A stretch of 36,551 nt of DNA from a virus (IMGVR_UViG_3300011335_000496:1-36551); one strand, 5' to 3'. Shown: positions 13,922-34,244, counted from the first letter of the stretch. Notes: generated by a model from the letters alone, not told the origin. Numbers and translations are program-made.

Positions 13922-15265
13922 TTATTTAACCAGAGGAGCAGAACCCATTAAATCAACGAGCTTAGTTATTGCTTTAAGTACCTCGGCGGCTTGGTCTGGT
14001 GCTCCTGTACTCGGTACTCCCGCTGGTGCTCCGAAAGGGGTTTGGGTCATCATTCCGGCTCCTTGTTTTAGAAATCCGCTCTGCGCTCCTAGTGCGGCGA
14101 TTTGCGCTGGGTCAAGCCCAGTCATTCCCCCTTGAATCTGATTTGCTAGGCTGGGTGCTTCTCTTGCGGCTTGTTGAGCGGCCACCCTCTCCTTCATATC
14201 CTGCATCGTAAGTGGGGCTTGTCCCATCGCTTTTCTTTTTACATTCTCTTCTTCCGTCATCTTCCCGAACACCTTCTCTTGTGTCTTAAAATCTTCTTGC
14301 TTGTTTTCTCTTTGCCTTCGTTTCCTAGCCACATCAAGAGTTTGTTGACCTCCCTTGCTTGCTCCCAATAAGCCACCGCTTTGTGCCTGTGCTTTTTTAG
14401 CCTCATCAGCATTAGCCTTTTCGAGCTTTGTATTTGCAACAATTAAGGATGTTTGCTGTTCGTATAATGCGTTCGCATTTTTAGTTATTAAAAGTCTTTT
14501 GTTCTCGGAGTCTGCCAATCTATTTAAATCTGTTCTCTCTTGTTTTAAGACGGCAATCCTTGTTTCAATTTCATCAGTTAGCTGTGAGGCTAGGGCGACA
14601 TTTTTCCCAGTTATTCCCTCTTGTGCGTCTAGCTCTGCTCGTAGTCTGCGAGCATTTTTGGATGTGCTCTCCATCTCTTCCGATGTTTGCGTTGTAATTT
14701 CAAGTTCTCTTTGTCTAATTTTTAGAATCTCTTCTTGAATAACAAGCTGACTCTGCGCTGTTTTAAGTTCTCTCTCTGTATCCCCAAAGCCAAGATTGAT
14801 TCCAGTAAGTTTTTCTAGTCCACCCATTATCTTCCCCAATGAACCAAGCTGGGTGATCTTACCCTTTAGCTTTTCGGCTACATCTGCGGTTGCTTCTAAT
14901 CCCTTGCGAGCCTCTTCAACGCTTGTGCTTTTGAATGATGTTTCAAAGGCATCGGCTAGTGATTTCTGGGTTTCATAGTAATCTGTGGCCGAGTTTTTAA
15001 CTGCTTCCCCAAACTTGTTGACCGCCCCAACCGCCGCCGCTCCTATGATTCCCCCAACCCCTAGCCGAGCCAGTTGCATAAAGGAATGGGAGGCACTTGT
15101 TCCTGAGCTCCCTAGATGTAACAGGCTTTTGGCTAGTTGCTTAGTCGATGTTCCTGCACTATCAAAAGACTTAGATGTTTTTGTGGCCTCACGCTGGAGG
15201 TTCTTAAGGACGGGAGTTCCCTTTTTGTCATCAATCAGTACTTCTCCTTGAATCTTAAATCCCAT
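13922..15265 (-). CDS. Tape measure protein (short, 447 aa)
   Basis: Long helical Ala/Gly/Lys-rich protein downstream of the tail chaperones. Confidence 0.8.
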   Translation of the reverse strand: MGFKIQGEVLIDDKKGTPVLKNLQREATKTSKSFDSAGTSTKQLAKSLLHLGSSGTSASHSFMQLARLGVGGIIGAAAVGAVNKFGEAVKNSATDYYETQKSLADAFETSFKSTSVEEARKGLEATADVAEKLKGKITQLGSLGKIMGGLEKLTGINLGFGDTERELKTAQSQLVIQEEILKIRQRELEITTQTSEEMESTSKNARRLRAELDAQEGITGKNVALASQLTDEIETRIAVLKQERTDLNRLADSENKRLLITKNANALYEQQTSLIVANTKLEKANADEAKKAQAQSGGLLGASKGGQQTLDVARKRRQRENKQEDFKTQEKVFGKMTEEENVKRKAMGQAPLTMQDMKERVAAQQAAREAPSLANQIQGGMTGLDPAQIAALGAQSGFLKQGAGMMTQTPFGAPAGVPSTGAPDQAAEVLKAITKLVDLMGSAPLVK

Positions 15266-15266
15266 A

Positions 15267-16034
15267 TTACCCCTTGAGCTTGTCAGCTATTTCTTGATTC
15301 TTTCTCTCAATATATACCTTCATATCGTCTTCTTCTTCGTCCATCGCCATTTGCAGGCCGTGCCACGCACCACTCTTTGGCTTGTCTGCCCCATCAGCCG
15401 CATTACCAAATATGGCTCTGCATTTCCCAATTACTGCCAACGCCCCACCCCCAAAGTTTGCGCTTCCTTTGAGAACAGAGAACCGCTTTTCTAAGCCCTT
15501 AGATACTGCCTTCAGTTCAGCCACCATTGGCCCTTTGGTTAAAAATGATTTGAAAAGATTGTAGGCTGGAATCCACCCTGCGGAAATATACCCGCTAGAA
15601 GACATAGATGTTTTGACTAGCTTATTGTAGAACATACTGGCCGAACCGCTTCTTCCTTTATGACCTCTACCCGGCCCCGCTAGCGATCTTGGAAAGCTCT
15701 GGTAGAATCCCTTGTTCTTGCCCCTGCGTATTCTCCATGTCGCAATCTGAAAGGCTTCCTTCTTTCCAGAATACATTAGCTTTGGACTCTTTCTAAACTT
15801 AACAACCTCTTTCCCCTTTTTATTTGTGAAAACATACGATGATTGAATGACCTCTTCAGCCTTTAGGCTTTTTCTAATATCGTCTGTATCTGCTCTTTTT
15901 GTGTTCCGTTCTGCCATCGCTCGCATACAGATATTTGCCGCCCTGCGGTTTGTCTCATCAACATAGAACTTCCCAGACAACTCCATATATCTTTGGAGGG
16001 TTTTATTGAAATCTGTTGTATCTAAAACGATCAT
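15267..16034 (-). CDS. Basic neck/tail-completion-like protein (HK97 gp10/lambda Z-like)
   Basis: LDTTDFNKTLQRY N-terminus, very basic, helical C-terminus. Confidence 0.5.
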   Translation of the reverse strand: MIVLDTTDFNKTLQRYMELSGKFYVDETNRRAANICMRAMAERNTKRADTDDIRKSLKAEEVIQSSYVFTNKKGKEVVKFRKSPKLMYSGKKEAFQIATWRIRRGKNKGFYQSFPRSLAGPGRGHKGRSGSASMFYNKLVKTSMSSSGYISAGWIPAYNLFKSFLTKGPMVAELKAVSKGLEKRFSVLKGSANFGGGALAVIGKCRAIFGNAADGADKPKSGAWHGLQMAMDEEEDDMKVYIERKNQEIADKLKG

Positions 16035-16054
16035 AACTATTGGCCTTCGTCAAT

Positions 16055-16263
16055 TTATAGGTCGAGAAACTTTTCTATGCCCTTTATCTCTTCTTGGTTA
16101 AAGCTCGTCTTTAATCGGCAGTTCACACCCTCGCTCCAAAGGAAGGTGTGCCGTGCTTGAATGATTAGTTTTAGGGGAACTTGCCACATAATATAGTCAA
16201 TGCTCCATCCTGTTTTCTTTGCCAGCGTGAAGACCAACGCCGCCGTCCACGCTGGCGTTAGTC
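16055..16263 (-). CDS. -1 frameshift extension of the tail assembly chaperone (gpGT-like)
   Basis: Open frame RLTPAWTAALVFTLAKKTGWSIDYIMWQVPL follows the slippery site. Confidence 0.8.
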
Positions 16264-16635
16264 GTTTCCCGATGCTGTTGCCCCACTAGGAACAATCGTA
16301 ACCTCGCCCCTATTGGCTTCTTCAACAATGGTCTCAACAAGTTTAGAGGCAATAGATCGTTCTTCATCGTTCTTGTTTTCCATCCAGTCTAAAAGCCTTG
16401 ACCTAAACAGATTTTTATTCCAAGCAAGTTCGATAGCTGTCTGTCTATTTTTAGCGATCTGAATATGCATAAATATAAAAGCCCAAATAAAGAACATTGT
16501 GGTATCTTCATCGCTCCGTACTTGCAGTAAAAGCAGTCTGCTTCCCTCTGTATAGTCTGCGAGCTTTTCTCCGTTATAGAATTTTGCATTTGCTACAAAA
16601 GCTGAGTTTAGTTCTTCATCTAAGGATATATTCAT
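16258..16635 (-). CDS. Tail assembly chaperone (gpG-like)
   Basis: Between tail tube and TMP; ends ...S-G-N-D over G GGA AAC. Confidence 0.8.
   Translation of the reverse strand: MNISLDEELNSAFVANAKFYNGEKLADYTEGSRLLLLQVRSDEDTTMFFIWAFIFMHIQIAKNRQTAIELAWNKNLFRSRLLDWMENKNDEERSIASKLVETIVEEANRGEVTIVPSGATASGND
16264..16270 (-). other. Programmed -1 ribosomal frameshift site GGGAAAC
   Basis: X XXY YYZ heptamer in the correct phase just before the chaperone stop codon. Confidence 0.85.
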
Positions 16636-17012
16636 AAGTGCCGTAGCATCGCCCTTTTTTGATCTGAGGTTGCGTTTTCTGACACAAGCAAAGTTTGGCC
16701 TCCACGCTCAATAATGCGCACCGGGGTACAGCGCTTTACAAGCCCCAAAAGTGTGTCTCTATTTTCCAAGGCCGCCCTAACATATCGAATAGGGGATTCT
16801 TCGGGACACTTCATCTCACTCCACGGACATTCCATCTCTGCCCTTACCTCTGCCCCCTTGCCCCCTGCCTCGAACCAGAAAGTTACCTGCGACTCCCCAT
16901 TTTCTTTTATCGTTCGTGAAACTGGATCGAGCCTTCGGAGCTTGCCACCAGCCCCAGCCACGGCACTAGCCACCTTGATATTCGTCGTTCCCCAGTATGC
17001 AATACCTTCCAT
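16632..17012 (-). CDS. Hypothetical protein in the tail operon
   Basis: 126 aa, ATGA-coupled to the chaperone. Confidence 0.7.
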   Translation of the reverse strand: MEGIAYWGTTNIKVASAVAGAGGKLRRLDPVSRTIKENGESQVTFWFEAGGKGAEVRAEMECPWSEMKCPEESPIRYVRAALENRDTLLGLVKRCTPVRIIERGGQTLLVSENATSDQKRAMLRHL

Positions 17013-17046
17013 GAGATTAGGATTTCATTAGAAGCAACTTGCCTCT

Positions 17047-17394
17047 TTAGGTTACATTCGGATAGCCAGTCGCAGAAATGTCCAGAGTCACAAAAGCATC
17101 GTTGCTCTTGTTGAGGGTGATCGAATCAATGCGAGTCGTTCCAAGGGTGGTTGCGTTAGCTAGAGCAGACAAGGCCGCTCCTGCCGTCACATTGTAAGTG
17201 CCAGTAATGGCAACGGAGAGGGAGTAGGCAGTTGTGGGATTGAAATATCCAACCGCAACAATATCCCCGGAATTCGATCTTACCTCGTTCTTCTCAACGC
17301 TACGAGCTTCAGAGAAACTTTGAACCAATCCAATTCCAGCTTCGGCAGTTAGCCCAAACACAAGACCCGCCGTACCGATTGTGGCCGCTGGCAT
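17047..17394 (-). CDS. Major tail (tube) protein, minimal
   Basis: 115 aa, all-beta pattern (VQSFSE...EVR...GDIV...IDSITLNKSN...LDISATGY); position upstream of the chaperones. Confidence 0.7.
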   Translation of the reverse strand: MPAATIGTAGLVFGLTAEAGIGLVQSFSEARSVEKNEVRSNSGDIVAVGYFNPTTAYSLSVAITGTYNVTAGAALSALANATTLGTTRIDSITLNKSNDAFVTLDISATGYPNVT

Positions 17395-20866: not shown

Positions 20867-21538
20867 TCAATCCAGCTTTATCATTCCCTCAAAGTCGAAA
20901 ATGTTGTCAGCTTCCCACTCGTTCTTCTGGGGGAAGAATCCAGTGTTCTTTTCCTTCCTTACCGCTGAGGCCAAGATGATTGGGGTGCTATTGATCGCCC
21001 AGAACATATCTGCCCCTCGAATAGCCTTTGCCATGTCCTCAATGTTTGGGGCGGTGTAGGTAGAAAGCCCTTGGATTTTAATATCGGGCGGGGTCATAAC
21101 ATAGAAGTTTTCCTTGCCCATCTCAGCCCTTGCCTTTGTTATGATCTCAAGCGGGTTGTTGTAATACCCTTGGCTTATTCCAAAAGGAGCGACTAGGTTG
21201 TACTTCTCGGGAAGTTCCTTGGATGGCTTCTCATCCAGCTTGTCTAGGACGATGTTCGTCTTGTCTGCTCCTTTAATCTCGGCATGGCTGTAAACGAAGT
21301 CTGTCCAAGTCTTTTTGCTCTTTCGGTACTCCTCGTATTTGTTCGGCCATATCTCAAGGTCAATAATGTCTCCCTTGCTCCCCGCTTTTACATAGGAGAC
21401 AAGATCAAAGACAGAATGATATTGAGGCAAGCAATCAAAGAAAACCTCGTGGCCTTGGTCTGCTAGAAACTTTGCGGCGGGTAGGCATCGAAGGACATCC
21501 CCCAGCCTCTGCGAATATTTGATTGTCTTAGCACTCAT
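20867..21538 (-). CDS. Glycosyltransferase, GT-B (GT9-like)
   Basis: RLGDVL..LPA..FL...GHEV; AIRGADMFWAINS.PI.LASA. Confidence 0.7.
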   Translation of the reverse strand: MSAKTIKYSQRLGDVLRCLPAAKFLADQGHEVFFDCLPQYHSVFDLVSYVKAGSKGDIIDLEIWPNKYEEYRKSKKTWTDFVYSHAEIKGADKTNIVLDKLDEKPSKELPEKYNLVAPFGISQGYYNNPLEIITKARAEMGKENFYVMTPPDIKIQGLSTYTAPNIEDMAKAIRGADMFWAINSTPIILASAVRKEKNTGFFPQKNEWEADNIFDFEGMIKLD

Positions 21539-22295
21539 CAGCCACGCTTTTGTCCGTTATGAATGGCAAGTAATCCATCAGCCTAACTGGGCTTGTCGTT
21601 TGTTGTAGCCTTTCCCATCCTTCAACCAGTCCTTTGTACCCATAGAAATCCTGCTTAAATTGTACCTGTTCTTTCGTGGCGTAGGCGTAATGATCAAAGG
21701 TTAGACCCCAAGTTTCTGTGACTCCCCTCGGAATCATCAACGATTGAACATTCAGCTTGGGCGGTTCGTGGCTTGTGAAATGAATATCCCTTCCCCATCT
21801 CCACGCTCTGAACCACTCGTACCAGTTCGAGCCGAACCCCTCCCTAGTCACCACCTTCTTGTTTTGCCCTATATAATAATTGCAATGAAACTGCATCGCT
21901 CGTCCCTCTTCGCATCCTTTGAGATGTCCAAAAATAGCGTCTATCTGCTCGGCCTTCCACATCTCGTCACTATCAATCTGCATCACTACCCCTCCGTCCA
22001 CTCCTCGCAAGGCTTCGTTAATCATCGCCAGCTTCCCTTCAAAGGGTTTGGCTTGCCAATATACAGAGATGTTTTCCCCTCTAATGCTCTCAAGATATTC
22101 GTGTGTTCCGTCCACGCTTACAAAATTCTTATGGTATTTGTCGGGAATTTGCTTGCACCACCGAGTACATCCAAGAGGCTCGCTTACTCCCTCAACGATA
22201 TTCCATCTCCAAGGGATTTGTAGTTTCTTGAACTCTGCTAGGTGCTTCTCAATGTAGGGCATCCCATTGAGAACGATGGTGAAGATGGTCAGCAT
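21528..22295 (-). CDS. Glycosyltransferase, GT-A (GT2-like)
   Basis: FTIVLNG..YI, SVDGT.EYL, QIDSDE (DxD), FDHYAY. Confidence 0.85.
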   Translation of the reverse strand: MLTIFTIVLNGMPYIEKHLAEFKKLQIPWRWNIVEGVSEPLGCTRWCKQIPDKYHKNFVSVDGTHEYLESIRGENISVYWQAKPFEGKLAMINEALRGVDGGVVMQIDSDEMWKAEQIDAIFGHLKGCEEGRAMQFHCNYYIGQNKKVVTREGFGSNWYEWFRAWRWGRDIHFTSHEPPKLNVQSLMIPRGVTETWGLTFDHYAYATKEQVQFKQDFYGYKGLVEGWERLQQTTSPVRLMDYLPFITDKSVADEC

Positions 22296-22801
22296 TTTAG
22301 TCGGCCATAAATAACGCTTATCTCTGAGCAGAAAGAAACAGAGTCATATCGGTAACACTCAAACCCAATAGACTCGAACCAAGCTATAAATTCCTTTAGC
22401 CATAAATCAGAATAGTGAAGCTCAATAGCGATCTCCTTTAGTGTCCCTACATCTGCAATCTGCAACATCCTTGATTCCTCCCCCTCTATGTCGCATTTGA
22501 TATGAGTTATTAAGTTTTCCTTAATCAGTCCTTGGATTTGCTCTGATGATTCTATCCTTTGGCACAAGAATTTGCTCTCTGGATATTGCTTGGCCAGAGA
22601 TTCAATGTCCCCTTGGTTTGTGTCTATCCCTATGTAGAGCTCTGGCTTTTGTGATAGGAAGTATTTTGCTGTGCCGTTACCCTCTTGCCTTTCTGCCTCC
22701 GTCCAGAATCCACACCCCAAGTCTAGGACTCTTCCACCCTTAGCGTTGAGATGCTCCCAATGAATCTGCGGAGCTTCCGAATCTATTGCTCCCTTGGTCA
22801 T
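22289..22801 (-). CDS. Class I SAM-dependent methyltransferase (FkbM-like)
   Basis: VLDLGCG, IGID, IKCDIEGEE, IAIELH. Confidence 0.8.
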   Translation of the reverse strand: MTKGAIDSEAPQIHWEHLNAKGGRVLDLGCGFWTEAERQEGNGTAKYFLSQKPELYIGIDTNQGDIESLAKQYPESKFLCQRIESSEQIQGLIKENLITHIKCDIEGEESRMLQIADVGTLKEIAIELHYSDLWLKEFIAWFESIGFECYRYDSVSFCSEISVIYGRLKC

Positions 22802-23406
22802 AATTGGAAGATGGCCGCCCCATTCCTACAAGCCATATCGTCCCATAGCAGGGTTGCGGTTCGCTTTAGCCTTTCATAATTTGCGTAGTTCTTAATGTCG
22901 TTCACATCGTCCAAGGCTATGATTGCTTTCTCTGCTAGGAATGGTCGGACGCAACGCAGTTCTGATTCCCCAGAGAAAGGCGAGCCATCAATCAATACAA
23001 AGTTAAAATCTGCATTATGCTCAAAGTGAACATCCTCGATTGCGCTTGTCTTGTACTGGTAGGCGGTTTCAAGACATACATTGTGCCAGCCCAAGACTTG
23101 CTCTAGCGGGTACTGGTTAAGGTTGGTTTTGGTTGTTTGATAAAACTCTTCAATATCTTTCTTGTTCAGCCATAGGCTAGACAGGGTGGCTGTTCCATTG
23201 ATTGCTACTCCCCCTCTAGCAGATAGGTTCATTGAATGGCGGCCTATGCGGTCGGGATGATTCTCGATGCTGAATAGCTTCTTGGTTTTGATACATTGCG
23301 TGGAGCCGTCCCCTGTTCCCCCTCCAATCTCTAGCCCTACATCTAGCCCCTCGCTATATTTTTGAAGGGCTTGGCCGAATGAGTCGTTGCTAGTTATTTC
23401 TTGCAT
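22798..23406 (-). CDS. Class I SAM-dependent methyltransferase
   Basis: LEIGGGTGDGST, FSIE, VLIDG, IALDD. Confidence 0.8.
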   Translation of the reverse strand: MQEITSNDSFGQALQKYSEGLDVGLEIGGGTGDGSTQCIKTKKLFSIENHPDRIGRHSMNLSARGGVAINGTATLSSLWLNKKDIEEFYQTTKTNLNQYPLEQVLGWHNVCLETAYQYKTSAIEDVHFEHNADFNFVLIDGSPFSGESELRCVRPFLAEKAIIALDDVNDIKNYANYERLKRTATLLWDDMACRNGAAIFQL

Positions 23407-23648
23407 TTTGCCATCTCTACTAATGCCTTCTTAATCACATATTCAATCACCGCCTCAGGGTCTTGCTTCAACGCAAGCATCCCAGCTTCATACAATTCCT
23501 TCTTGGCTTTTTCGTCATAGGTAATATCGACATTCACGAACTTATTTTTGCAAGGGCGAGACTTGCCAAAGGTGATTATACCAAGCCCCTTGGTACTCTC
23601 TCCCTTTTTAGCTTTTCTACATCCAATTATTTGCTTTGCGCTTTTCAT
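23394..23648 (-). CDS. Small basic hypothetical protein
   Basis: Fills the gap between the GT and the MTase; start uncertain. Confidence 0.55.
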   Translation of the reverse strand: MKSAKQIIGCRKAKKGESTKGLGIITFGKSRPCKNKFVNVDITYDEKAKKELYEAGMLALKQDPEAVIEYVIKKALVEMAKCKK

Positions 23649-25269
23649 ATATTGCTTTCCCTTTCTCATAGAACTCTGGCTTATTATGATTCTTTAGCTG
23701 TTCGTCTGGGTTGCCCCCTGCAAACATAGGATTCTCGTGTTTGAATTGGATATGTCGAGCCTCAACTATTACTTGGTCTTGATATGCCCTGTCCGTGTGC
23801 TCGTTGTCTCCGTAAATACCATCGCTCTCTTGGTAGTCGGGGTGGAACATATGCCCTTGCTTCTTTAGCCTATCCTTTGTCAGAATCGCCATACAGAGCA
23901 GTTTGTCCGTCCTAAGCCCATCTGATACCGCTAGCACCTTCTCTGCCTTTGTATCCCCAATAGCGGTCGAAATTAGGGCATCCCAATGGCGGGGAGGAGT
24001 CCAATCATCCGACATTTGAATAATGATGTCCCCCTTGGCTATTTTTGCCCCTGCGTTCCAAGCATTAACGATTCCACCCGGATTCACTCGAATAGCTTGG
24101 TGCGGGGTGTAATCCACCTTCTCATCCTCATCCACCATAAACAACCACTCAACTTCTAGGGGTTTCTCAGCCAAGCACAACCATTGCCAGCGTCTTTGCC
24201 AAGCGATCTGCTGTCTGCCTCTAGTGGCGTGAATCACGCTTATTTTGGGGGCGGGTCTGCACTTGCGAATCTTTTCTGCCTCGCCTAGTTCCCCTACACA
24301 AACTGCGGCTGTCTCGTAAATATCCATCGCTTGCCAGTTGTAAACTGCTTCTACTAGATTCCAGTAGTGGAGTTTAGGGCGAGCAAGTGCCATCGCTGTC
24401 CTTGCCGCTCCGTAGGTTTTAATCCAATTCCCTTTCCCTGCCCAATGATTTGCAATATAAAAATAAGCCTCTCTCCTGTCTGGTTGTAGCCCTACCGCTT
24501 GCCCTAACCAAGAGAGCCTGTCGCTATCACCCACTATCCTCCCTAGATTGCAAAGCACATCGTAGCGGAGCGTGTCCTCTAGCTCTGGGAAAGATAAGGC
24601 TCGCATACTCGAATCAATGCACTTGTCGATTTGATTGCTTAGAAAGTATTCTTGGGCTTGGTAGTATAGACAATGCGGGGCAGTAGAAAGGGAGTCGGCC
24701 AATATGTTGAAGTTCCTTTCAGCACTTTTGGGCTTGTACCCATCGGGCTTGTGGATTCTGAAAATCTTATCCACCCCAATCGTCTTGTTCGGTTCTTTAG
24801 TGAGAAGCATCTCGTGAACTCGATTTTTCCAATAACAAGTTCCCTTCTTGCTTATCTCTTCTCGGAGGGGGATTAGGCCAGCGTTATCGACATTATATTT
24901 TAACGCCACTAAGTGAGCGTCTTTCTCGATGGCAAGGGCAATAGCCTCCTCGATCACCTTCTCCCCATCCTCGGCCATTACATCGTCAGCATCTACCCAT
25001 AAAGCCCACTCACAATCACAAGCCTCTAGCGCAGTATTCCTAGCCGTTGCGAAGTCGTCTATGTGTTCCCAATCAGTTCTTTTATTCTGGTAATGAACGA
25101 CTCTAGCACCGAGAGAAAGTGCGATCTCCTCCGTCTTGTCTGCCTTAGCTGACCCCCGAGCCATACATACAACAACTTCTTTTGAGATGGGCTTAAATGA
25201 TTCAATACAACGCTGGATGTATTTTTCTTCATTGCCAGCTATGAGGTAAACAGAAAGAGGATATTTCAT
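23617..25269 (-). CDS. Bifunctional glycosyltransferase GT2-TPR-GT2
   Basis: N-terminal LSVYLIAGNEE..I..C, DFATARN, WVDADD, RVHE; TPR-like helices; second GT KISVIHATRGR, MSDD. Confidence 0.9.
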   Translation of the reverse strand: MKYPLSVYLIAGNEEKYIQRCIESFKPISKEVVVCMARGSAKADKTEEIALSLGARVVHYQNKRTDWEHIDDFATARNTALEACDCEWALWVDADDVMAEDGEKVIEEAIALAIEKDAHLVALKYNVDNAGLIPLREEISKKGTCYWKNRVHEMLLTKEPNKTIGVDKIFRIHKPDGYKPKSAERNFNILADSLSTAPHCLYYQAQEYFLSNQIDKCIDSSMRALSFPELEDTLRYDVLCNLGRIVGDSDRLSWLGQAVGLQPDRREAYFYIANHWAGKGNWIKTYGAARTAMALARPKLHYWNLVEAVYNWQAMDIYETAAVCVGELGEAEKIRKCRPAPKISVIHATRGRQQIAWQRRWQWLCLAEKPLEVEWLFMVDEDEKVDYTPHQAIRVNPGGIVNAWNAGAKIAKGDIIIQMSDDWTPPRHWDALISTAIGDTKAEKVLAVSDGLRTDKLLCMAILTKDRLKKQGHMFHPDYQESDGIYGDNEHTDRAYQDQVIVEARHIQFKHENPMFAGGNPDEQLKNHNKPEFYEKGKAIYEKRKANNWM

Positions 25270-25382: not shown

Positions 25383-26354
25383 TTATGCGAAGTTTGTGGT
25401 GATGCGAACAGCGGCGTTCGGATCAATCACCACTTCATCCGTATTCATACGAACCCGGAGCACTTGGCTACGGCGAGCTTCGTCACGATAGCTCTCTGAG
25501 ACGAATCCACCAGCCGCATCGCCAGTCCAGACCAAGGTGCGACCAATTCCACCAGCGGTGAACTCACCGCCAGAGACTTGACCCACAATGATTTTAGTGT
25601 CTGGAACAACGAACGAACCAGTATAGCTCTTGTTCTTGCCAGCGGTGTTGTAAGCCGCACGACCAATCAAGAGGTTCTGCACACCGAGAGCCGCCGCAAT
25701 CTCCGCTTCGGAGAGCAAGCGAGCACCTGTGCTAGAAATCACTCCGAAGAATTGATTTTGCAAGAGTGTCGAACGACGAATCAACTCAAACACATTAGCC
25801 GACATCGCAACGCAATTTGACTCATACCCATATTGGGCGAGGGCCAACTTGGCGGCCGCCACATCACGAGCGATATCCACCGTTGCAACTAACGCTTGGG
25901 TGTAGGCAACTGCACGAGTTTGATCAGCAATGGTGAAGGGAGTCGAGCTAGCCCAGAGAAGATCGGCCACCCGTTTCTCGTGGGAGAGTTTCAACTGACG
26001 AAGCAAGAACTTTGCTGTTTCGCTCTCGTATGAGAAGAAACGATTTAAGTCAGCGGAAGCATCATCAGGAAGCAATTCTTCCAGTCCGAATTCCGAAGTT
26101 GCAAAATTTGCCGAGCTAAAAGAACGAATTCCTCTGCTGTAGTTAGAACCACTCTCACGATTGAGAGCGTTGTTGCTGAGGAGTTCGCCAGCCGCCAACT
26201 GCACTTTCAAATATGTTCCAGCTTTCGCATCAACATTTTGAAGGGGCAATAATTGCGACCCGATCAAACCCACATCCGCTTGAGGAGCTTCGATCAACGC
26301 TTGGCTGATGTCCGCCCGAATAGTTGCTCCGCTTCCGCCGTTAATAAATGCCAT
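25383..26354 (-). CDS. Major capsid protein (HK97 fold, lambda gpE-like)
   Basis: 323 aa after the protease and decoration genes; LKLSHEKRVADLL; ESYRDE..RS.VLRVR; strong terminator follows. Confidence 0.88.
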   Translation of the reverse strand: MAFINGGSGATIRADISQALIEAPQADVGLIGSQLLPLQNVDAKAGTYLKVQLAAGELLSNNALNRESGSNYSRGIRSFSSANFATSEFGLEELLPDDASADLNRFFSYESETAKFLLRQLKLSHEKRVADLLWASSTPFTIADQTRAVAYTQALVATVDIARDVAAAKLALAQYGYESNCVAMSANVFELIRRSTLLQNQFFGVISSTGARLLSEAEIAAALGVQNLLIGRAAYNTAGKNKSYTGSFVVPDTKIIVGQVSGGEFTAGGIGRTLVWTGDAAGGFVSESYRDEARRSQVLRVRMNTDEVVIDPNAAVRITTNFA

Positions 26355-26764: not shown

Positions 26765-27178
26765 TTAGAGTTTGAAAATACCACGAGTCAAAGCCTCGGT
26801 GTATTCTTTGGGGTTTGATAGCATCACGGCTTTCATGGCCTTGAGCTTAGAAGTTCCGTAATCGCTATGGGCGGCCACGAGTGCTTCAAAATTCTTGGGT
26901 TCGTCTTTCTTTTCGGAAGGAACTTCAATGGAGGGCGAGGCGGGAATGGGCTTAATGCCAAACTCAGTCAGCACTTTTTTCACCACCGCACTCATCTCTT
27001 CATCCTTCTTATCTTCGGAGGGTTCAACCTCAACGGAGATTTCGGGGGCGGGAGTTTCGGAGGGCTTATCAGAGGCCATCTCCTCTTTCTTCATTTCATC
27101 CTTGGGTTTCATCGAATCTTCAATGGCCGCTAGGCGAACCTTGATATCTTCGATATCTTTCATGTAATTGTTTTCCAT
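26765..27178 (-). CDS. Nested in-frame scaffold protein (Nu3-like), 137 aa
   Basis: Internal ATG (MENNY...) preceded by TTGACA-AAAAGGA-TAAAACTAAT. Confidence 0.65.
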   Translation of the reverse strand: MENNYMKDIEDIKVRLAAIEDSMKPKDEMKKEEMASDKPSETPAPEISVEVEPSEDKKDEEMSAVVKKVLTEFGIKPIPASPSIEVPSEKKDEPKNFEALVAAHSDYGTSKLKAMKAVMLSNPKEYTEALTRGIFKL

Positions 27179-27850
27179 ATTAGTTTTATCCTTTTTGTCA
27201 AGTGGTGCATCCTCTACAACAGCTTGTGGAATTGTCCCCTTGATAGTATCGCCACCAGAAACATATCCAAGTTTTGCCATAAACTTAACCATTTCCTCGA
27301 AGAGTCCGTTGGTGGCCGCTGGCGAGGATACAAGATCAGCCGAGGCAATGCTCTGGGGTCTGATGTAGTCCTTCCCATCAATCGTCTCGCTCTCGTTCAC
27401 AAAGGCTAGGGAAACGCCGAACTGGTCGGGGGCTTCGCTGGCCATCTCTTTGATAAGGCCATAATGAGGAGAGTTGCGGAGTAGTCGGAGATCAGCCACT
27501 AGCTTGTCCCCTTCAATGCGAGGATTCCTTAAAAAGCCGACAACCGCCTCCAATCCAGAACCGTGATTCATCTTTGCTTTAGTTCCATTCTTGGCACTTT
27601 CCATAAGTTTAAGGGCAGTTTCTAGGCTTGTTTTATCCACGAAAAGGTCGTGTCCTTTAGCCTCTCCCACCTCTAAAATGCTCACCCCACCTAGCTCCAT
27701 CTCTTCCATCTCCTCATCCCGATAAGTAGAATAGGCTACGGCTGAACGCTGGGATTCCTCTGGAAAGTCGCTGATGGCTTGCTCGTCTCCCATAAAGCGG
27801 GAAACAAAATCTTTCTCTGATTCGTCGGCACTAGGAATTGGTAGGGGCAT
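26765..27850 (-). CDS. Prohead protease/scaffold protein
   Basis: GEAKGH, MNH, FGVS and ADLVSSPAAT protease-like motifs; acidic C-terminal scaffold. Confidence 0.8.
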   Translation of the reverse strand: MPLPIPSADESEKDFVSRFMGDEQAISDFPEESQRSAVAYSTYRDEEMEEMELGGVSILEVGEAKGHDLFVDKTSLETALKLMESAKNGTKAKMNHGSGLEAVVGFLRNPRIEGDKLVADLRLLRNSPHYGLIKEMASEAPDQFGVSLAFVNESETIDGKDYIRPQSIASADLVSSPAATNGLFEEMVKFMAKLGYVSGGDTIKGTIPQAVVEDAPLDKKDKTNMENNYMKDIEDIKVRLAAIEDSMKPKDEMKKEEMASDKPSETPAPEISVEVEPSEDKKDEEMSAVVKKVLTEFGIKPIPASPSIEVPSEKKDEPKNFEALVAAHSDYGTSKLKAMKAVMLSNPKEYTEALTRGIFKL

Positions 27851-27866
27851 AAATCCCTACCTTATG

Positions 27867-30800
27867 TCAAAGGAGATCGCCGTCCGCTTCTCGATATGAC
27901 TTCTTGACTTCACCGCCACCCGCCATCTTCAAGAACTTGTTGACTCTAGCCATCGCCCAAGCGTTGCGTGAGTTGGGCTTGCCCCCGCTGATGGTGGGTC
28001 GGAAGCTGGTCGAGAACGCCCCTGCTCCCCTTCGGAATACTTTCTTCAATGCTCCGATGCTAGGTGCGTTTTTGTTGGGGTGATCTTTCTTGAACTCGGC
28101 GATCTTGTTCTTCAAGGCTTCCTCGTTCTGCTCTGAAATCTCAATATCCCCAGCCTTGCTCCGGGTGGATGCCGTGCCTTCGGGGTTCTCCTTCGAGCCT
28201 TTGATTCGTTCCTTGGGAGGGGCGGGGGTTTGGGAGACTGGTCGGGCTAGTTCTTCTTTCTTGTCTGTGATCGGGCCACCAACAATCCAAGCATCACAAG
28301 TCCTTTTAGATGCACACTTAAAGTCAAAAATCTCGCAGTAGCCAAGATCGCCACCAATCGCTACTTCGTTCGCATCCTCTCCAATCCCCTTCTTGATACA
28401 TCCTAGAATCTTGTTCCTCTGATCAAAGGCCGCACAATTACCACAAAGCATCTTCTTTGCCGTGGGTACATCCCCCTGAAATTCGCCTGCCTTGGCTTTC
28501 CAGTAGTCCTCGTTAGGTTCGTTAGGATTGGCTGGGCCATAGTTCGCGTCGTCCACGGCTGTCTGCCTATTGGCTAGGTTGGTCTTTACATCTTGCGTTG
28601 CGATTGGACAAGAGGCTGGTTCGGCCAGTTCTTTCTTGTCCCTAGATTCCATCTGACCAACTACTTTTTTTGCCCAAGAATAGCCAGCATCCCCACCCCA
28701 TCCGTTCCACGCTTGCCAGCCCTTTCCTTGCTCCCCAAAGGTAGAGCCTTTCTTGTCCACTTCGTGCCTATCGAAAAAGGCTTTCATTCTTTTGATGGTG
28801 TCGGGTGATAGCTTCACCCCATTTTGTAAGTCTCTAGCCCTAGCAAGCCCAACAGGGGTCATTCCCCTTTGGCTGGGTGGTTTCGTCTCCCGCACTTCTA
28901 AGGCTCTTTTAGCGGCATCCCTAGCCCCTTGCGGGGGGCTGAAATCAATCCCCTCGTATTTGCCCAACTCAATGCCACCCATCATTCCGGCAATCAGCAT
29001 CTTAATTTCGTTCTGGTTTAGCTCTCGGACTACTGCTGTTTCGGTACTTAAATTATACTCTTTCAATACATTCTGCGGAACTTTCTTTCCTGCTTTTAGT
29101 GCATCCCTAACAATCTCTTCGTGATCTTTTTCTTTGCTCGCTAGTGTTCCGATGTATTTAGCCATCCGCTTTGCCGAGATTTCTTCTGGGTCGTTTTCAT
29201 ACATTTTATTAAAGTCGCCATCTCCACTAATAATTTTTTTAATATCTGCTTTCTTGATTTCCCTGCCAGTTGCCCTTCTCATTTGATGTGCAGATTCCTC
29301 GTAGAGCGTCCCAACCATTTGTGAATTTGGGTTAATAAAGATTGCTGGTTTTCCTTCAAATGTTCCAGAAGCACCGTCGAAAACAAAATCTTCGCCAGTC
29401 TTTATTCTTTCCCCTTTAACTACTGGGGTTCTCATAACCATCACTGGCACATCTAAAACTGGTTTTAGTAATTCTCTAGTTTTTTCGCCGTGAATTAAAT
29501 CACCAACATTTCCAATAATAGTTCCATCTTTTTGATTTTCTGCATCAATAAACTTTCTTGAAATTTGAGGGTGGAAAAATTCTTTCTTTGTAAGTTTCCA
29601 CAATTCAGGCGATTTAGTGCTTGCTTTGTTTGATTTGTCTATTTTTTCCTCACCCTCACCCCCTGCACAAGTATTCCCATCTTTGAATCCTCCGCTACCA
29701 GTCCCGCAATCTAGGCTTTTGAATGTTTTTTTAACTGGGCCTATTCTTCCCCTTTTAACTAAACTAGCCCTTAACTCTTTTGCCTCTTTCTCTACTCCAT
29801 CAATCGAATCTTTAATATTTTGTGGAAGTTTTGAATATCCTTCCTTATCAAATCTTTTCATTCCATTAAGTTCTGCAAAACTTTCTGTTACCGTTCGGTC
29901 TGCGGTTGATTCATCCCATACCTCACCTATCGAATACTTTATTCTTGTTCGTTTTGCCACCTCCTCGATTACCTTGGGATTGGCCTTTATTGCTTGAGTA
30001 AAGTTCCCCTTGGTCTCTTCCTTTGCGCCATCCCATATTCCGTGTCCAATTTCGTGATGTATTAGCCTATTAAATCCGTGCTTAACTCTATATTCGTCAC
30101 CAGAGGCGGCTATGGCCTCTGATGTTTTTGTGTGAATAATAAGATTGTTTTTGTTGTGCGCTCCATAATATGTAAAGCCAGACGGGGTTTTAGATGTTCC
30201 CCTAACCTCTATGTTATCTATTCCAGCGGTTCGCATCGCCTCGATTGTTTCTGGTTCAGACAATGCTTTTTCAAGGTCTGCCTTGGTTTTCTTTCCTAAT
30301 CTTTTTACTGCTCCGGGCGCTCCTTTTTGTAGTCCCCCCTCAGCGTCAGTTATTGTGAAGTCCCCTATTTTTGCTCTGACTCCCCTTCCATCCTCTGTAA
30401 ATTCTTGCCCATTATCCCCCCATTTTTGACCCGGTAAAACTTCTGGTGCAATTTCAACCTTTGCATTTTTAATTGATGGTTTTCCGCCACCCACCTCTCC
30501 TCCATCGCCACCGCCAGAGCAAGTATTTCCCGGCTTGAATCCACCAGAACCAGTTCCGCAATCTTCTAATTCCTTACTTTTTTTTTGAGTAGGTAATTCT
30601 ATTTCTGACTCGTCTATTGGCAATTCATCTTCTCTATCATCTTTTTGCAATTCTTCGGATGATGGCTCAATAGGTTCTTCTGGCGTGGCCTCATCGCCTC
30701 CACCTTCATCCTCGCCCTCTTCTGGCTTGTCGTTCTTTGTGGCTACTGCTTGGGGTGCGGGTGTTGGAAATTGTGGCTGAGGCGGTGTGGGTGTAACAAT

Positions 30801-32234
30801 ATCGGAAATGGTTTCTGGGGCTACGCCATACTTCTGTGCCAAGTCCTTAATCAGCTTGGCCTCAATCGCCCTCTGCCTCATTGCGCTCTCGAAGTCTTGG
30901 CCACGCTCGGCGTAGATGTCGGCGGCGGTGCGGAGTCCTGTCTTAAACTCGGATATGGCCGAGGCTGATTCTCTGCCCAAATCAATAGAGACATTCGCCC
31001 CGAAATTAAAGATGCCCTTGGTAGTTCTGCTTCCAGCGTTGTTCTCAATCAATCCCCTTGCAACTGCATCGGCAATTACGATGTTCTTAATTGGGCGAAG
31101 CACTTTATCGTCTAGGAGTTTCTGATATCTGCGGAAAGTTCTCCCCGCTTGTTGCATCTCAAGGCGAGCGGTCGGGCCACTCATAGCGGAAGGGTCAACG
31201 GCGAAGCTGTAAGGGATGCCCACTCCTAAGCAAATGTTGCGGAGTAGAATCTTGTGGAACTCTGCGAACGCTCCGCTTGGTCTGTTCGGGCCATCGGGGA
31301 ACTGAATCGTTTCTCCCGGTTCGAGATAACTGACCTTGCCCGATTCCATAGTTTCTAACTTGATTGCTTGGTTATCAAAATTGGTATCGGAGGTCAGATC
31401 ACTCAAGTCGGAAGCATTGTTGTTGTTTCTGAGAACGATTGCACTCTGCGAACTCGCTACCTTAGCTGACATCTTTTCAAAATTGATTATGTCGTAAATG
31501 TCTTGTGCATCGTTAATTGCAGTATGGAAAGCCGAGATGCCCCTGTACTGGTCGATGCGGAGCGGGTCGTATAGGTGGAACGCTTGGCTTGCGCTTACCT
31601 TTTGTTGGAAGGTGTAGGCGTTTCCGATAGATCGTGCGAAAATATCGTAGGCAGTAGGAGCACCAGTCTCTTGATCTATATGGATGCCCCCGATTAGATC
31701 GCTAGTGGTATAAACTTGGAAGGGGTTGCCGAGTCGATCTGCTTCGATGCCTTGTAGTTTTAGATCGCCATTGTTGTCTCTAATTAAAACGAATAAAAAG
31801 TCGCCGTCTCGGAGCATCGACATAACCGCAACTTGCATAAGGGTTGAGCCTGTATGCCTCGTTGAGATGTCGCAGTTATCCCACCATTCAGACCAGAACG
31901 ATTCGACATCTGTATTGACCGCTGGCTCGCTTGTTCGGGCTTGGTAAGAAACATTCGCCGCCGTGTGCGAGGCAAACTTCATTAGGATAGATCGAACTAG
32001 CCCAACATTCTCGGCCAAGTCCCTGCTCCGCTTCATTAGTTCAATACGATCATATCCAGTCCGATAGCTCTCTGCACCCTGCAACACGCTCGGGCCTTTG
32101 CGCTCCCGATTGTACTTGGTCGCATCGTAGTTGAAATGGGTCAGCTTTGCCCTTGCAATCGCTCTCTCAACTCCCGCTTGTGGGTTGACCAAGGCCACGG
32201 CTCGGTCGATTAGGTTAAGGGATATTTTCTTCAC
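27867..32234 (-). CDS. Lambda-family portal protein fused to about 950 aa of extra domains
   Basis: First ~480 aa are lambda gpB-like (RSRDLAEN, LRDGD, IEADRL, R.DQ.RG, YLEPGE); then a linker and five modules. Confidence 0.9.
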   Translation of the reverse strand: MKKISLNLIDRAVALVNPQAGVERAIARAKLTHFNYDATKYNRERKGPSVLQGAESYRTGYDRIELMKRSRDLAENVGLVRSILMKFASHTAANVSYQARTSEPAVNTDVESFWSEWWDNCDISTRHTGSTLMQVAVMSMLRDGDFLFVLIRDNNGDLKLQGIEADRLGNPFQVYTTSDLIGGIHIDQETGAPTAYDIFARSIGNAYTFQQKVSASQAFHLYDPLRIDQYRGISAFHTAINDAQDIYDIINFEKMSAKVASSQSAIVLRNNNNASDLSDLTSDTNFDNQAIKLETMESGKVSYLEPGETIQFPDGPNRPSGAFAEFHKILLRNICLGVGIPYSFAVDPSAMSGPTARLEMQQAGRTFRRYQKLLDDKVLRPIKNIVIADAVARGLIENNAGSRTTKGIFNFGANVSIDLGRESASAISEFKTGLRTAADIYAERGQDFESAMRQRAIEAKLIKDLAQKYGVAPETISDIVTPTPPQPQFPTPAPQAVATKNDKPEEGEDEGGGDEATPEEPIEPSSEELQKDDREDELPIDESEIELPTQKKSKELEDCGTGSGGFKPGNTCSGGGDGGEVGGGKPSIKNAKVEIAPEVLPGQKWGDNGQEFTEDGRGVRAKIGDFTITDAEGGLQKGAPGAVKRLGKKTKADLEKALSEPETIEAMRTAGIDNIEVRGTSKTPSGFTYYGAHNKNNLIIHTKTSEAIAASGDEYRVKHGFNRLIHHEIGHGIWDGAKEETKGNFTQAIKANPKVIEEVAKRTRIKYSIGEVWDESTADRTVTESFAELNGMKRFDKEGYSKLPQNIKDSIDGVEKEAKELRASLVKRGRIGPVKKTFKSLDCGTGSGGFKDGNTCAGGEGEEKIDKSNKASTKSPELWKLTKKEFFHPQISRKFIDAENQKDGTIIGNVGDLIHGEKTRELLKPVLDVPVMVMRTPVVKGERIKTGEDFVFDGASGTFEGKPAIFINPNSQMVGTLYEESAHQMRRATGREIKKADIKKIISGDGDFNKMYENDPEEISAKRMAKYIGTLASKEKDHEEIVRDALKAGKKVPQNVLKEYNLSTETAVVRELNQNEIKMLIAGMMGGIELGKYEGIDFSPPQGARDAAKRALEVRETKPPSQRGMTPVGLARARDLQNGVKLSPDTIKRMKAFFDRHEVDKKGSTFGEQGKGWQAWNGWGGDAGYSWAKKVVGQMESRDKKELAEPASCPIATQDVKTNLANRQTAVDDANYGPANPNEPNEDYWKAKAGEFQGDVPTAKKMLCGNCAAFDQRNKILGCIKKGIGEDANEVAIGGDLGYCEIFDFKCASKRTCDAWIVGGPITDKKEELARPVSQTPAPPKERIKGSKENPEGTASTRSKAGDIEISEQNEEALKNKIAEFKKDHPNKNAPSIGALKKVFRRGAGAFSTSFRPTISGGKPNSRNAWAMARVNKFLKMAGGGEVKKSYREADGDLL
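29659..30563 (-). repeat. Direct repeat pair encoding DCGTGSGGFK[PD]GNTC[SA]GG
   Basis: Copies at about 30511-30563 and 29659-29711, each heading one inserted domain. Confidence 0.9.
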
Positions 32235-32467
32235 GGGCCAAATTTTGCGTAGGTTGTACGAATCCTTGTGCCACTTATATTTTGAATGGCAAGCGTTAGT
32301 TCGGCAATCGTGGACGAAACTTCGCTGAGGTTCGCCCTTGAGAAAGAGCGTCCCGCTATCGAATACGAGCTACCCGCCACCGCAATAGCTTCAAGACAAG
32401 TGACATATTTATCACGAAGAGAAGTAAGGGTGGCTAAGGGTAGCCCAATGAAATCACCCTTCGCCAT
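32231..32467 (-). CDS. Head-tail joining protein (gpW-like)
   Basis: GSSYSIAGRSFSRANL; between terL and portal; GAGGAGG SD. Confidence 0.85.
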   Translation of the reverse strand: MAKGDFIGLPLATLTSLRDKYVTCLEAIAVAGSSYSIAGRSFSRANLSEVSSTIAELTLAIQNISGTRIRTTYAKFGP

Positions 32468-34244
32468 TGATTTCCTCCTCTGTCAAACTTGCGGGTGATA
32501 CTTGCAAGAGCTTGTATAGGCCAGCCCCTACTATATTCATACATTCACAATCGAGCAAATGGTTCTGCTTCCCGATTTGCTTCCAGACCATCCTTGTCCT
32601 TCCAGTTAACGGGTTCTTCACCGCTACCTTAACCTCTGCTCGAATATGAGTGTGCCAAACTTCGGGAGCGTCATCGGCCACGAATCCTTCGGAGTGGAGG
32701 AGGTTCGAGAATATGTCTTTTATACTAGGGTTAGACCACCGCCAAACTGGACATAGCCTCCACTTCCACCCAATCCTAGATTGCCCTGCCTTACCCGATA
32801 AGGGGTCTCCATTAGAGATTCTTGCAAAGGGTCGGGTGACTTTCTTTTCATTCACAATCTCTGAGAAGGAGGAGCGATCTGAACCAACCAAAGCAATCCA
32901 GCCGTGCAAGCAACATTGATAATAGACATCTCGTGTCTGATCGCCCGAATCTATAAATACCATCTTGGGCAGTACCTTGAACTCGTCTGCCTTTGCTTCT
33001 ATATCGCCCCAAGTTTCAAGGCGGCCAGCCCACACCATCCGAGACTTGCCTTCATCGTTATACGCTCGAACCAGTACCCAAGTATGAAAGCCGCCAGACT
33101 CCTGCACATCGACGCTCATCACGCACTTCTCGCCCTCTCTAACCTTGCCCATCTTGTAGCCTCCCGCCTTGATCTCGATTCGTTCCTGTTCGTGTTCTAA
33201 CCAAGGCTCGGCCAAGACTCGATTGATAAAATCTTGCAAGCCCACGATTCCCGCATACTTATCTTGTAAGAACTTCACCGCCAAGCTCCCAAATGTTACC
33301 CAAGGAGCATACAAACCATTGAGGTGATAGGAGCGTCTGGCTGGCTCGCCATTAGGATTAGTTGCCCTCCACTCTCCCCCTCGAAGCATAGCGGTTTTTT
33401 GTCCATCTGTGATTGGCTTCTTGCATCCTTCACACTCGTAATAGGCTGAGGATTTTACTAGGGCGAAGTCATAGACGCTATCCTCTAGCTTTGCTTTGTC
33501 ATCCCACTTGATCTGTCCCCATATAAGTTTCTGTTTCAATCCACAATGCGGACAAGGCACAAAGAAGAAGCGCATATCCCCTTTAAGCCATTCGCTCCAT
33601 ATCGTACTATCTGCCGTGGTTGGCGTGCTAGTGGTTATGATTAGATGGTTCGGGTAGGTGCTGACTCTGGCCTCTGCCAGTTGCAACGCTCCCGCCTCTG
33701 TTTTGCTTGACCCTGCCTCTGGATATTTGTCCACCTCATCGAGCATCAAAAGGGAAACAGACCTAGAGGCAAGATTGGCGGGGCTGTTGCTTCCTACAAA
33801 CCAAAGACTCATCTTTCTAAAATGCTGTTCGAGAATCTTGATCTTGTCTGTGTTGTCGGGCTTTTCTTTGGCTAGGGCTGGGCAATCATCAATCATTGGC
33901 AACCATCGAGTTTCGGAGAACGATCTTGCGAGAGCCTCGGAGGGCATCACCCAAAGGGCGGGACAAGGCCGCTCGGCCAGTCGATAGGCTAGGCCAGCTA
34001 GAATCGTTGTAGTCTTGGATGTCTGCGCTCCCCAGACTAGGCACACCCGCCGAACTGAATCATCCCCAAAAGCCTCAAGCGGTTCTCTCACATAGGCAGT
34101 GAGGTTGGTTGAGTATGCCCCCGGTATGTTCGTCACCCTCGCTGATAGCGTAAGGTTTTTCTCTGCCCATTCTGGAATTGAAAGATGCTCTCTGGGCTTG
34201 AATAGTTCCCTAGTGAATCCGTTGATTTCCGCAAGCGGGTTCAT
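32454..34244 (-). CDS. terL: Terminase large subunit (lambda GpA family)
   Basis: Walker A WGAQTSKTT, Walker B LMLDEVD, TSTPT, CPHC/CEGC, nuclease VDVQ/DSG/NHLLDC. Confidence 0.96.
   Translation of the reverse strand: MNPLAEINGFTRELFKPREHLSIPEWAEKNLTLSARVTNIPGAYSTNLTAYVREPLEAFGDDSVRRVCLVWGAQTSKTTTILAGLAYRLAERPCPALWVMPSEALARSFSETRWLPMIDDCPALAKEKPDNTDKIKILEQHFRKMSLWFVGSNSPANLASRSVSLLMLDEVDKYPEAGSSKTEAGALQLAEARVSTYPNHLIITTSTPTTADSTIWSEWLKGDMRFFFVPCPHCGLKQKLIWGQIKWDDKAKLEDSVYDFALVKSSAYYECEGCKKPITDGQKTAMLRGGEWRATNPNGEPARRSYHLNGLYAPWVTFGSLAVKFLQDKYAGIVGLQDFINRVLAEPWLEHEQERIEIKAGGYKMGKVREGEKCVMSVDVQESGGFHTWVLVRAYNDEGKSRMVWAGRLETWGDIEAKADEFKVLPKMVFIDSGDQTRDVYYQCCLHGWIALVGSDRSSFSEIVNEKKVTRPFARISNGDPLSGKAGQSRIGWKWRLCPVWRWSNPSIKDIFSNLLHSEGFVADDAPEVWHTHIRAEVKVAVKNPLTGRTRMVWKQIGKQNHLLDCECMNIVGAGLYKLLQVSPASLTEEEINGEG

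Follow-up and report, generated by a model that had tools for sequence, protein, structure and literature searches.

The portal gene of the virus analysed here encodes a single chain in which a lambda-family portal domain is followed by five passenger modules, each preceded by a Leu residue (L556, L841, L1090, L1203 and L1329). The two variable modules open with a shared 15-residue peptide, tag T1, which recurs in the head genes of many other phages, and the residue before it follows the head lineage of the phage. We propose, with a probability of roughly 0.6, that the portal ring loads this string into the head, that the prohead protease frees the modules, that the tag stays on the N-terminus of the variable cassettes, and that these cassettes are ejected.

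The sequence examined is a complete virus record of 36,551 bases, hereafter the window, and all of its features given below lie on the minus strand. The portal polyprotein open reading frame (ORF; 27867..32234) has a GTG start and encodes 1,455 aa. Residues 1-480 (30795..32234) form the portal domain: PF05136 matches residues 61-371 with 174.7 bits against a curated cut-off of 32.9 (E 3.9e-51), phrog_21 matches at E 3e-56, and TIGR01539 gives 122 bits (E 1.8e-35), below its own cut-off of 172.7. Together with the adjoining terminase large subunit of the lambda gpA type (32454..34244; PF05876 and PF20454), this places the protein in the lambda portal family and agrees with the first-pass annotation, which had read a lambda-type portal of about 480 aa fused to passengers. 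The terminase and a head-tail adaptor lie upstream of the portal ORF; the likely protease-scaffold gene and the major capsid gene (25383..26354; phrog_1005, E 5e-26) lie downstream.

The first-pass annotation had allowed that assembly might have joined separate genes. A contig from run X1, possibly the source of the record, covers 27779-31197, and one from run X2, belonging to another study, covers 28959-30866, from the start of module A through both zincin-like modules and the linker to the portal end, each without a single difference; the comparison took in 4 of the 20 listed runs, and no single piece spans the whole portal gene. The fusion of portal to modules A, B and C was found again in independent contigs. 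These contigs bridge the junctions of the chain and rule out an assembly error or chimera. Chance or decayed sequence is ruled out by the dN/dS values against relatives (portal 0.10, Z1 0.075, Z2 0.035 and 0.042, A 0.10, B 0.035, C 0.078): every module is under purifying selection.

A search of GTDB genomes returned 0 relatives, and the phage has no known cultured member or host; no integrase was seen among the window ORFs scanned. Between the capsid and tail genes (20867-25269) lie two glycosyltransferase genes, methyltransferase-like genes and one further gene, a block possibly serving virion glycosylation. By reading, 13922-17394 encodes a small siphovirus-like tail, with a tube-like protein of 115 aa and a tape-measure-like protein whose 447 aa would mean a short tail; these tail genes gave no significant family matches.

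Behind the portal domain, the chain runs through an acidic, Pro-rich linker (aa 481-557, 30564..30794, net charge -17), tag-Z1, tag-Z2, a short segment H, and modules A, B and C. The linker ends at K-E-L↓E-D, the arrow marking a predicted prohead-protease cut. Tag T1 (DCGTGSGGFKxGNTC, 15 residues) opens each of the two zincin-like cassettes, at aa 558-572 (30519..30563) and, directly after K-S-L, at aa 842-856 (29667..29711), and the two copies are 75% identical over 56 nt. The tag copies, the short helix before module A and the Leu before every module start were all absent from the first-pass annotation.

All motifs quoted in that annotation were recovered at the positions it gives. Cassette Z1 (29712..30518) contains HEIGH (within HHEIGHG, 30039-30059) and a downstream E-S-F-A-E (within TESFAE, 29871-29888); cassette Z2 (29025..29666) reads EESAH, with Glu for the first His (YEESAH, 29286-29303), and a downstream EEISA (YENDPEEISA, 29172-29201). 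Neither has a match in Pfam, PHROGs or NCBIfam, and a fold model of Z1 and Z2 from a 6-sequence alignment was unusable (pLDDT 35.8; no structural match at E<=0.001), so that the zincin-like assignment of both rests on motifs. The two zincin domains claimed earlier thus stand as motifs, the second of them lacking the first His, and have found no family or fold behind them. A profile of other tagged zincins reached Z1 at E 4 only and did not detect Z2; homologue searches with Z1 yielded only 2 and 7 close proteins, and its ESM Atlas neighbours lie at 0.93-0.94, one neighbour cluster having 12% ATLF members. GC is 0.38 at 29001-30000 as against 0.48-0.52 in the adjoining kilobases, and GC3, low in Z1, is 0.20-0.40 over most of the cassettes as against 0.40-0.70 in the portal and A-B-C, which suggests a recent arrival of the cassettes.

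Related portals bore out the expectation of variable cargo. The best 80 loci of 251 candidate stretches, with portals 77-98% identical, comprised 66 complete at the 3' end, 13 truncated and 1 without a portal end. All 66 complete portals carry tails, of 342-1044 aa and in 13 architectures, with module A in 65, C in 41, B in 29 and a tag of any kind in 36 (T1 in 15; T2, RDCGxxxGGxFxxxNxC, in 23). On these closely similar portals, the 47 tagged cassettes fall into 16 clusters, including several zincins, ADP-ribosyltransferase (ART)-like proteins, two ParB-like proteins (by motif only) and a coiled coil. Six of the 47 match, at E<=1.3e-5, an ART profile built locally from Pfam-confirmed phage ARTs, and one relative (L074) combines an ART-like cassette (E 1.3e-5) with a ParB-like one, identified by motif, in a single chain. 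Z2 stands mid-chain in the window and in L291, and at the C-terminus in L013, L014 and L293-L295. In L072/L111 and L272 the H-A block is encoded as a separate gene behind the portal, so that fusion to the portal is not the sole arrangement. Two other tail modules recur: a short helical one, LNGAQVSS...AFP, stands directly behind the portal in many relatives (L006-L010 and others) and in unrelated HK97-type portals (also L093 and L126) and is absent in the window; another reads EGYxQDQAVAIA.

The remainder of the chain is of a different character. Segment H (28965..29024; KMLIxGMMGG) is short and conserved and ends in I-E-L before module A. Module A (28626..28964) is basic (pI 9.8) and all-helical, has a conserved R-H and W-x-x-W-G-G-D, and matches phrog_2859 at E 1.6e-22; the motifs quoted for it are PPQGARDAAKRAL (28899-28937) and AWNGWGGDAG (28683-28712). 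Module B (28248..28625) starts after K-E-L, resembles high potential iron-sulfur proteins (HiPIPs) and has seven conserved Cys, with CGNC at 28434-28445 and RTCDAW at 28287-28304. Module C (27867..28247), which starts after E-E-L, is again basic (pI 10.1) and helical, contains LKKVFRRGAGAF (28014-28049) and WAMARVNKFL (27930-27959), and is DUF5824-like, with a PF19141 match (E 6.6e-5, 23.5 bits) below the cut-off of 25. The A-B-C model has a mean pLDDT of 81. No module of the three has a sequence match in the PDB, and A and C are not similar to each other (hhalign probability 0.2). Among the fold-search matches listed, no solved fold reached Z>=8 for modules A and C (best Z 6.4), and as these matches mostly cover module C, module A was barely tested. 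Modules A and C possibly bind DNA.

Together, A, B and C match 5,193 clusters at 50% identity, and in BFVD they match mostly portals, proteases and XkdF proteins. Their carriers include portal, MuF, protease and capsid genes and range from haloviruses to cyanophages: module A, then C, stands at the N-terminus of a capsid-protein fusion in Roseobacter phage CRP-701, a module of A/B/C type at the N-terminus of a likely protease in Vibrio phage 1.122.A, another within a portal-MuF fusion in HRTV-28, and all three occur in head genes of DSL-LC01. Conserved and found on protease, MuF and capsid fusions of many phages, the three have the appearance of general head passengers. In the window, effector character is confined to the two tagged modules, and the several effectors suggested in the first-pass annotation are reduced accordingly to two, the last three of its five modules being widespread and conserved. 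In PaBG, a module of this type forms a lone gene: module A stands by itself among jumbo-phage replication genes, annotated as a putative DNA-binding protein (L086, KF147891.1, 3992-4324), and may thus also work outside the head. In the cultured actinophage DSL-LC01 (L082, OQ999401.1, 4169-22167), the head cluster spans 20 kb and shows an RDxxGK/RF-type tag and TA-A-type junctions; it also encodes a 3,290-aa protein and a protease that ends in a second HiPIP of classical appearance. Synechococcus phages S-CBS1 and S-CBS3 are further cultured carriers of these modules. Read by eye, the predicted cut residue is R in CRP-701, K in HRTV-28 (a Halorubrum phage) and A in DSL-LC01.

Module B probably binds a [4Fe-4S] cluster. 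Homologues are annotated as high potential iron-sulfur proteins; among 78 sequences, all seven Cys are conserved in at least 92%, and C61, C64, C97 and C110, in C-x2-C ... C ... C spacing, in 99-100%. By HiPIP spacing, these four would be the cluster ligands. In a Foldseek search with the three-module model, HiPIPs took ranks 3-5 and further places below (E 1.6-4; TM-scores by target no higher than 0.62), and none appeared among the 50 VIA matches listed. Across relatives, module B has been gained and lost between two E-L-A junctions.

Tag T1 is not confined to this lineage. A pattern search of the viral collection found 139 loci, with some 400 viral stretches estimated in all, and we examined the flanks of 80 of the 139. 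Pfam identified a carrier in 34 of 57 non-redundant tag ORFs: HK97-type portals (18), lambda-type portals (11), a Mu portal (1), MuF (2) and S78 proteases (2); 2 more are proteases of the same type as the protein encoded at 26765-27850. No carrier domain was seen in the other 21, several of which are stand-alone genes of the head cluster, and most of those with scanned neighbours (one representative per neighbour cluster) adjoin portal, protease, MuF or capsid genes. Behind the tags we find ART, ART-PolyVal, PARP-like and zeta-toxin-like domains. For three orthologous cargo domains, T1 leads in L151 and a second peptide, YDPSQxRDxSGKWT, leads in L132, which indicates that tags are interchangeable. 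The polyproteins concerned (L132:1059-5087(-) and L151:2-2833(-)) stand alone behind the portal and contain four or five tagged cassettes with PARP-like or zeta-toxin-like domains, the two tags alternating before orthologous cargo, and module B. In eight loci (L088, L089, L101, L110, L123, L131, L144 and L157), the protease and capsid genes flank a gene for a stand-alone tag protein that opens with a longer basic leader and has Gly, not the lineage residue, ahead of the tag. A likeness of the tags to small-terminase DNA-binding motifs was not borne out, with no Pfam match and no useful phage match.

A link between these peptides and head maturation is suggested by the residue ahead of the tag. 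Counted in a window 2-4 residues before the first Cys of the tag, it is L/F in 15/15 distinct contexts of the window's lineage and K/R in 21/21 of HK97-portal phages, although Fisher values overstate the case, as the lineages are few and related and the three-residue window was chosen after looking. The HK97 capsid protein is cut after Lys at the junction before its mature N-arm, and in 30 loci with an HK97-type capsid protein we compared the tag residue with the residue at this delta-domain junction. The two agree in 21 of the 30, as K with K in 5 and R with R in 16; in the other 9, Gly stands right before the tag in 8, and L128 cannot be read. Likewise, in five lineages module A and the tag are preceded by matching residues: K (L093, L105, L109, L134), E (L090, L140, L149), A (L126), F (L137) and L/F (the window's clade), L143 not being readable. 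By eye, proteases and scaffolds of those phages also show the lineage residue at junction-like places.

The candidate processing enzyme is encoded next to the portal gene, at 26765..27850, as a likely prohead protease-scaffold fusion whose short N-terminal module ends M-E-L↓G-G. This assignment comes through homologues: the protein is 44% identical to one (L159; E 3e-32) that matches phrog_15531 at E 0.0027, and 33% identical to another (L140; E 2e-11) that matches phrog_976 and phrog_207, all three families being head maturation proteases. The protein itself has no direct family match in profile searches, no Pfam domain appears in the 120 homologues listed, and hhalign against S78 proteases, with shallow profiles, gave nothing. 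The protease-scaffold also takes a passenger, the N-terminal module MPLPIPS...QRSAVAY; in other phages, the protease/scaffold junction holds an inserted T1-tagged cassette (L104:4407-5324, L142:4407-5906) or a small CWEGY...C module (L127:2-1159, L135:3234-4331).

In the reading we favour, these elements form one pathway. The C-terminus of a portal faces the capsid interior, and prohead proteases act within the prohead. As portals are 12-mers (PMC10052503), the dodecamer would place up to 12 copies of the passenger string within the head; twelve tails, at ~1.27 MDa, would take up 2-4% of a head assumed to be 50-60 nm. The protease encoded next door would cut at K/E-E-L and related sites, after Leu or Phe, so that each variable cassette would begin with its tag once freed. 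A tag left on the cargo by the predicted cut would act after cleavage, in retention, DNA tethering or ejection, and not as a removable loading signal. Ejection would follow, the tagged cassettes acting on the host at an early stage of infection, with A, B and C as long-standing head passengers, B with a probable [4Fe-4S] cluster and A and C possibly DNA-binding. Precedents exist for parts of the scheme, in accounts of the SPN3US portal being cut by its prohead protease (PMC10052503) and of T4 head proteins being cut and then delivered to the host (PMC9026906). Against it counts the general expectation, voiced in one of the same sources, that cut propeptides leave the head (PMC10052503). The nine loci outside the capsid-junction rule, the separate H-A genes, the 21 tag ORFs with no carrier domain, the assignment of the protease through homologues and the lack of family matches for Z1 and Z2 count against it as well.

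Three other explanations of the string have to be weighed. The modules might be loaded and cut but act in or on the particle, in DNA condensation, assembly or protection from oxidation, and never be ejected. Modules A and C, basic and strongly conserved, would suit such a role. So would the spread of A, B and C over proteases and capsid fusions of phages as far apart as haloviruses and cyanophages, which is broader than a host-specific weapon would reach, and the 25 and 30 kDa cassettes could probably get through a channel of ~30 Å (PMC9026906) only in unfolded form. The tagged slots, however, contain ADP-ribosyltransferases, zeta-toxin-like kinases and a PARP-like domain, all expected to have their substrates in a cell, and these slots turn over fast, like conflict proteins. 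We consider this unlikely for the string as a whole, although it may well apply to A, B and C alongside delivery of the cassettes.

Slightly less likely still, in our judgement, is that the string protects the packaging machinery against host defence while late assembly is under way in the infected cell and is trimmed or expelled at maturation, with the head genes supplying only timing and place. Iyer 2022 names an alternative of this kind for head-linked ARTs (PMC9503650), propeptides usually leave the head (PMC10052503), and split and stand-alone forms do occur; yet the chain would have no need of sites matched to the head protease unless it met that enzyme, which is active within the prohead, and folded domains of 13-30 kDa would not easily leave the shell. 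It is improbable, and the reading we would give up most readily, that the tag is mainly a DNA recombination handle by which cassettes hop between head genes, the zincins and not the prohead protease processing the chain. The 75% identity of the two tag copies over 56 nt, the gain and loss of module B between E-L-A junctions and the metallopeptidase self-processing proposed by Iyer 2017 (PMC5512222) all fit a handle of this kind. However, most related portals have no zincin and show the same junction residues, a tag of different sequence stands before the same cargo, and the junction residue tracks the head lineage and not the cargo.

We prefer ejection of tagged cassettes freed by the prohead protease. 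If the tag and cut site work as proposed here, sequence alone would suffice to recognize injected phage proteins, and the residue before the tag would give the specificity of uncharacterized prohead proteases. How head proteins are selected and ejected has been worked out in detail in few phages, and a 15-residue peptide would make the question testable; modules A-C, present in cultured phages, can be tested now. An iron-sulfur module within a capsid would be unexpected. A tentative generalization, which we ourselves would doubt more than believe, is that many tailed phages share a head-cargo grammar of carrier (portal, MuF, protease or scaffold), lineage-matched protease site and short interchangeable retention or ejection tag on the freed cargo, and that this phage would deliver a counted dose of 12 copies per enzyme together with a [4Fe-4S] module and two ancient small domains.

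Effector domains fused to portal or MuF proteins have been published before (PMC5512222, PMC9503650, PMC5576092), and Iyer 2017 and 2022 describe PBECR, 2H, InPase, Nudix and ART domains on portals and propose packaging and injection (PMC5512222, PMC9503650). In the main texts that literature searches covered, neither the tags nor the lineage-matched sites nor modules A-C were described, although supplementary lists may contain such architectures, and no paper came up on Pfam neighbours of A-C or HiPIPs with phage portals. Among known systems, the portal chain fits the polyvalent proteins of Iyer 2017 only in part. That class comprises late-gene proteins with 2-15 domains, among them zincin-like, ART and ParB domains (PMC5512222); here the portal and five modules lie between terminase and protease/capsid genes, with the latter two cargo types in relatives. 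Polyvalent metallopeptidases pair an HExxH-type helix with a Glu motif on the next helix, along with a three-stranded sheet (PMC5512222), and of the cassettes Z1 has both motifs and Z2 reads EExxH, in a model of pLDDT 35.8. Of the unrelated enzymes typical of the class, only zincin-like and HiPIP-like modules can be named in the window. Where Iyer 2017 proposes self-processing by metallopeptidases, prohead-protease sites are predicted here before each module, and the main-text passages of Iyer 2017 and 2022 describe no leading tag, lineage-matched protease site or modules A-C.

MuF polymorphic toxins, as presented by Jamet et al. 2017 (PMC5576092), likewise place variable C-terminal metallopeptidase or ART domains on a head protein of the packaging module, with delivery proposed to occur together with the DNA. 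The portals studied here show the same pattern of variable toxin-type domains on a constant head carrier, in 16 cassette clusters. MuF toxins belong to temperate phages or prophages; the window ORFs scanned show no integrase, and GTDB genomes hold no relative. No MuF domain, however, appears among Pfam matches at E<=0.1 on the chain, whose N-terminus is a portal, so that it is not a MuF toxin; its carrier, the portal itself, would be present in 12 copies as against 1-2 for SPP1 gp7, its cassettes are both mid-chain and terminal with several per chain, and the next gene is a protease. With the internal proteins and Alt of T4 and the head proteins of SPN3US, it shares cargo cut, here by prediction, by a prohead protease at a phage-specific residue (PMC9026906, PMC10052503). 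In the T4 accounts, a capsid targeting sequence precedes the cut and is removed, whereas here the conserved tag follows the lineage-specific residue and the predicted cut and would stay, and loading would proceed by covalent fusion to the portal C-terminus. Module B resembles HiPIPs in its C-x2-C ... C ... C-x2-W pattern and matches the structures of several of them weakly, and it differs in three further conserved Cys, an N-terminal extension, a phage head-protein setting and the lack of a significant match. What this locus adds to these systems is the agreement between tag residue and capsid junction across lineages, the exchange of tags before the same cargo, and a HiPIP-like passenger.
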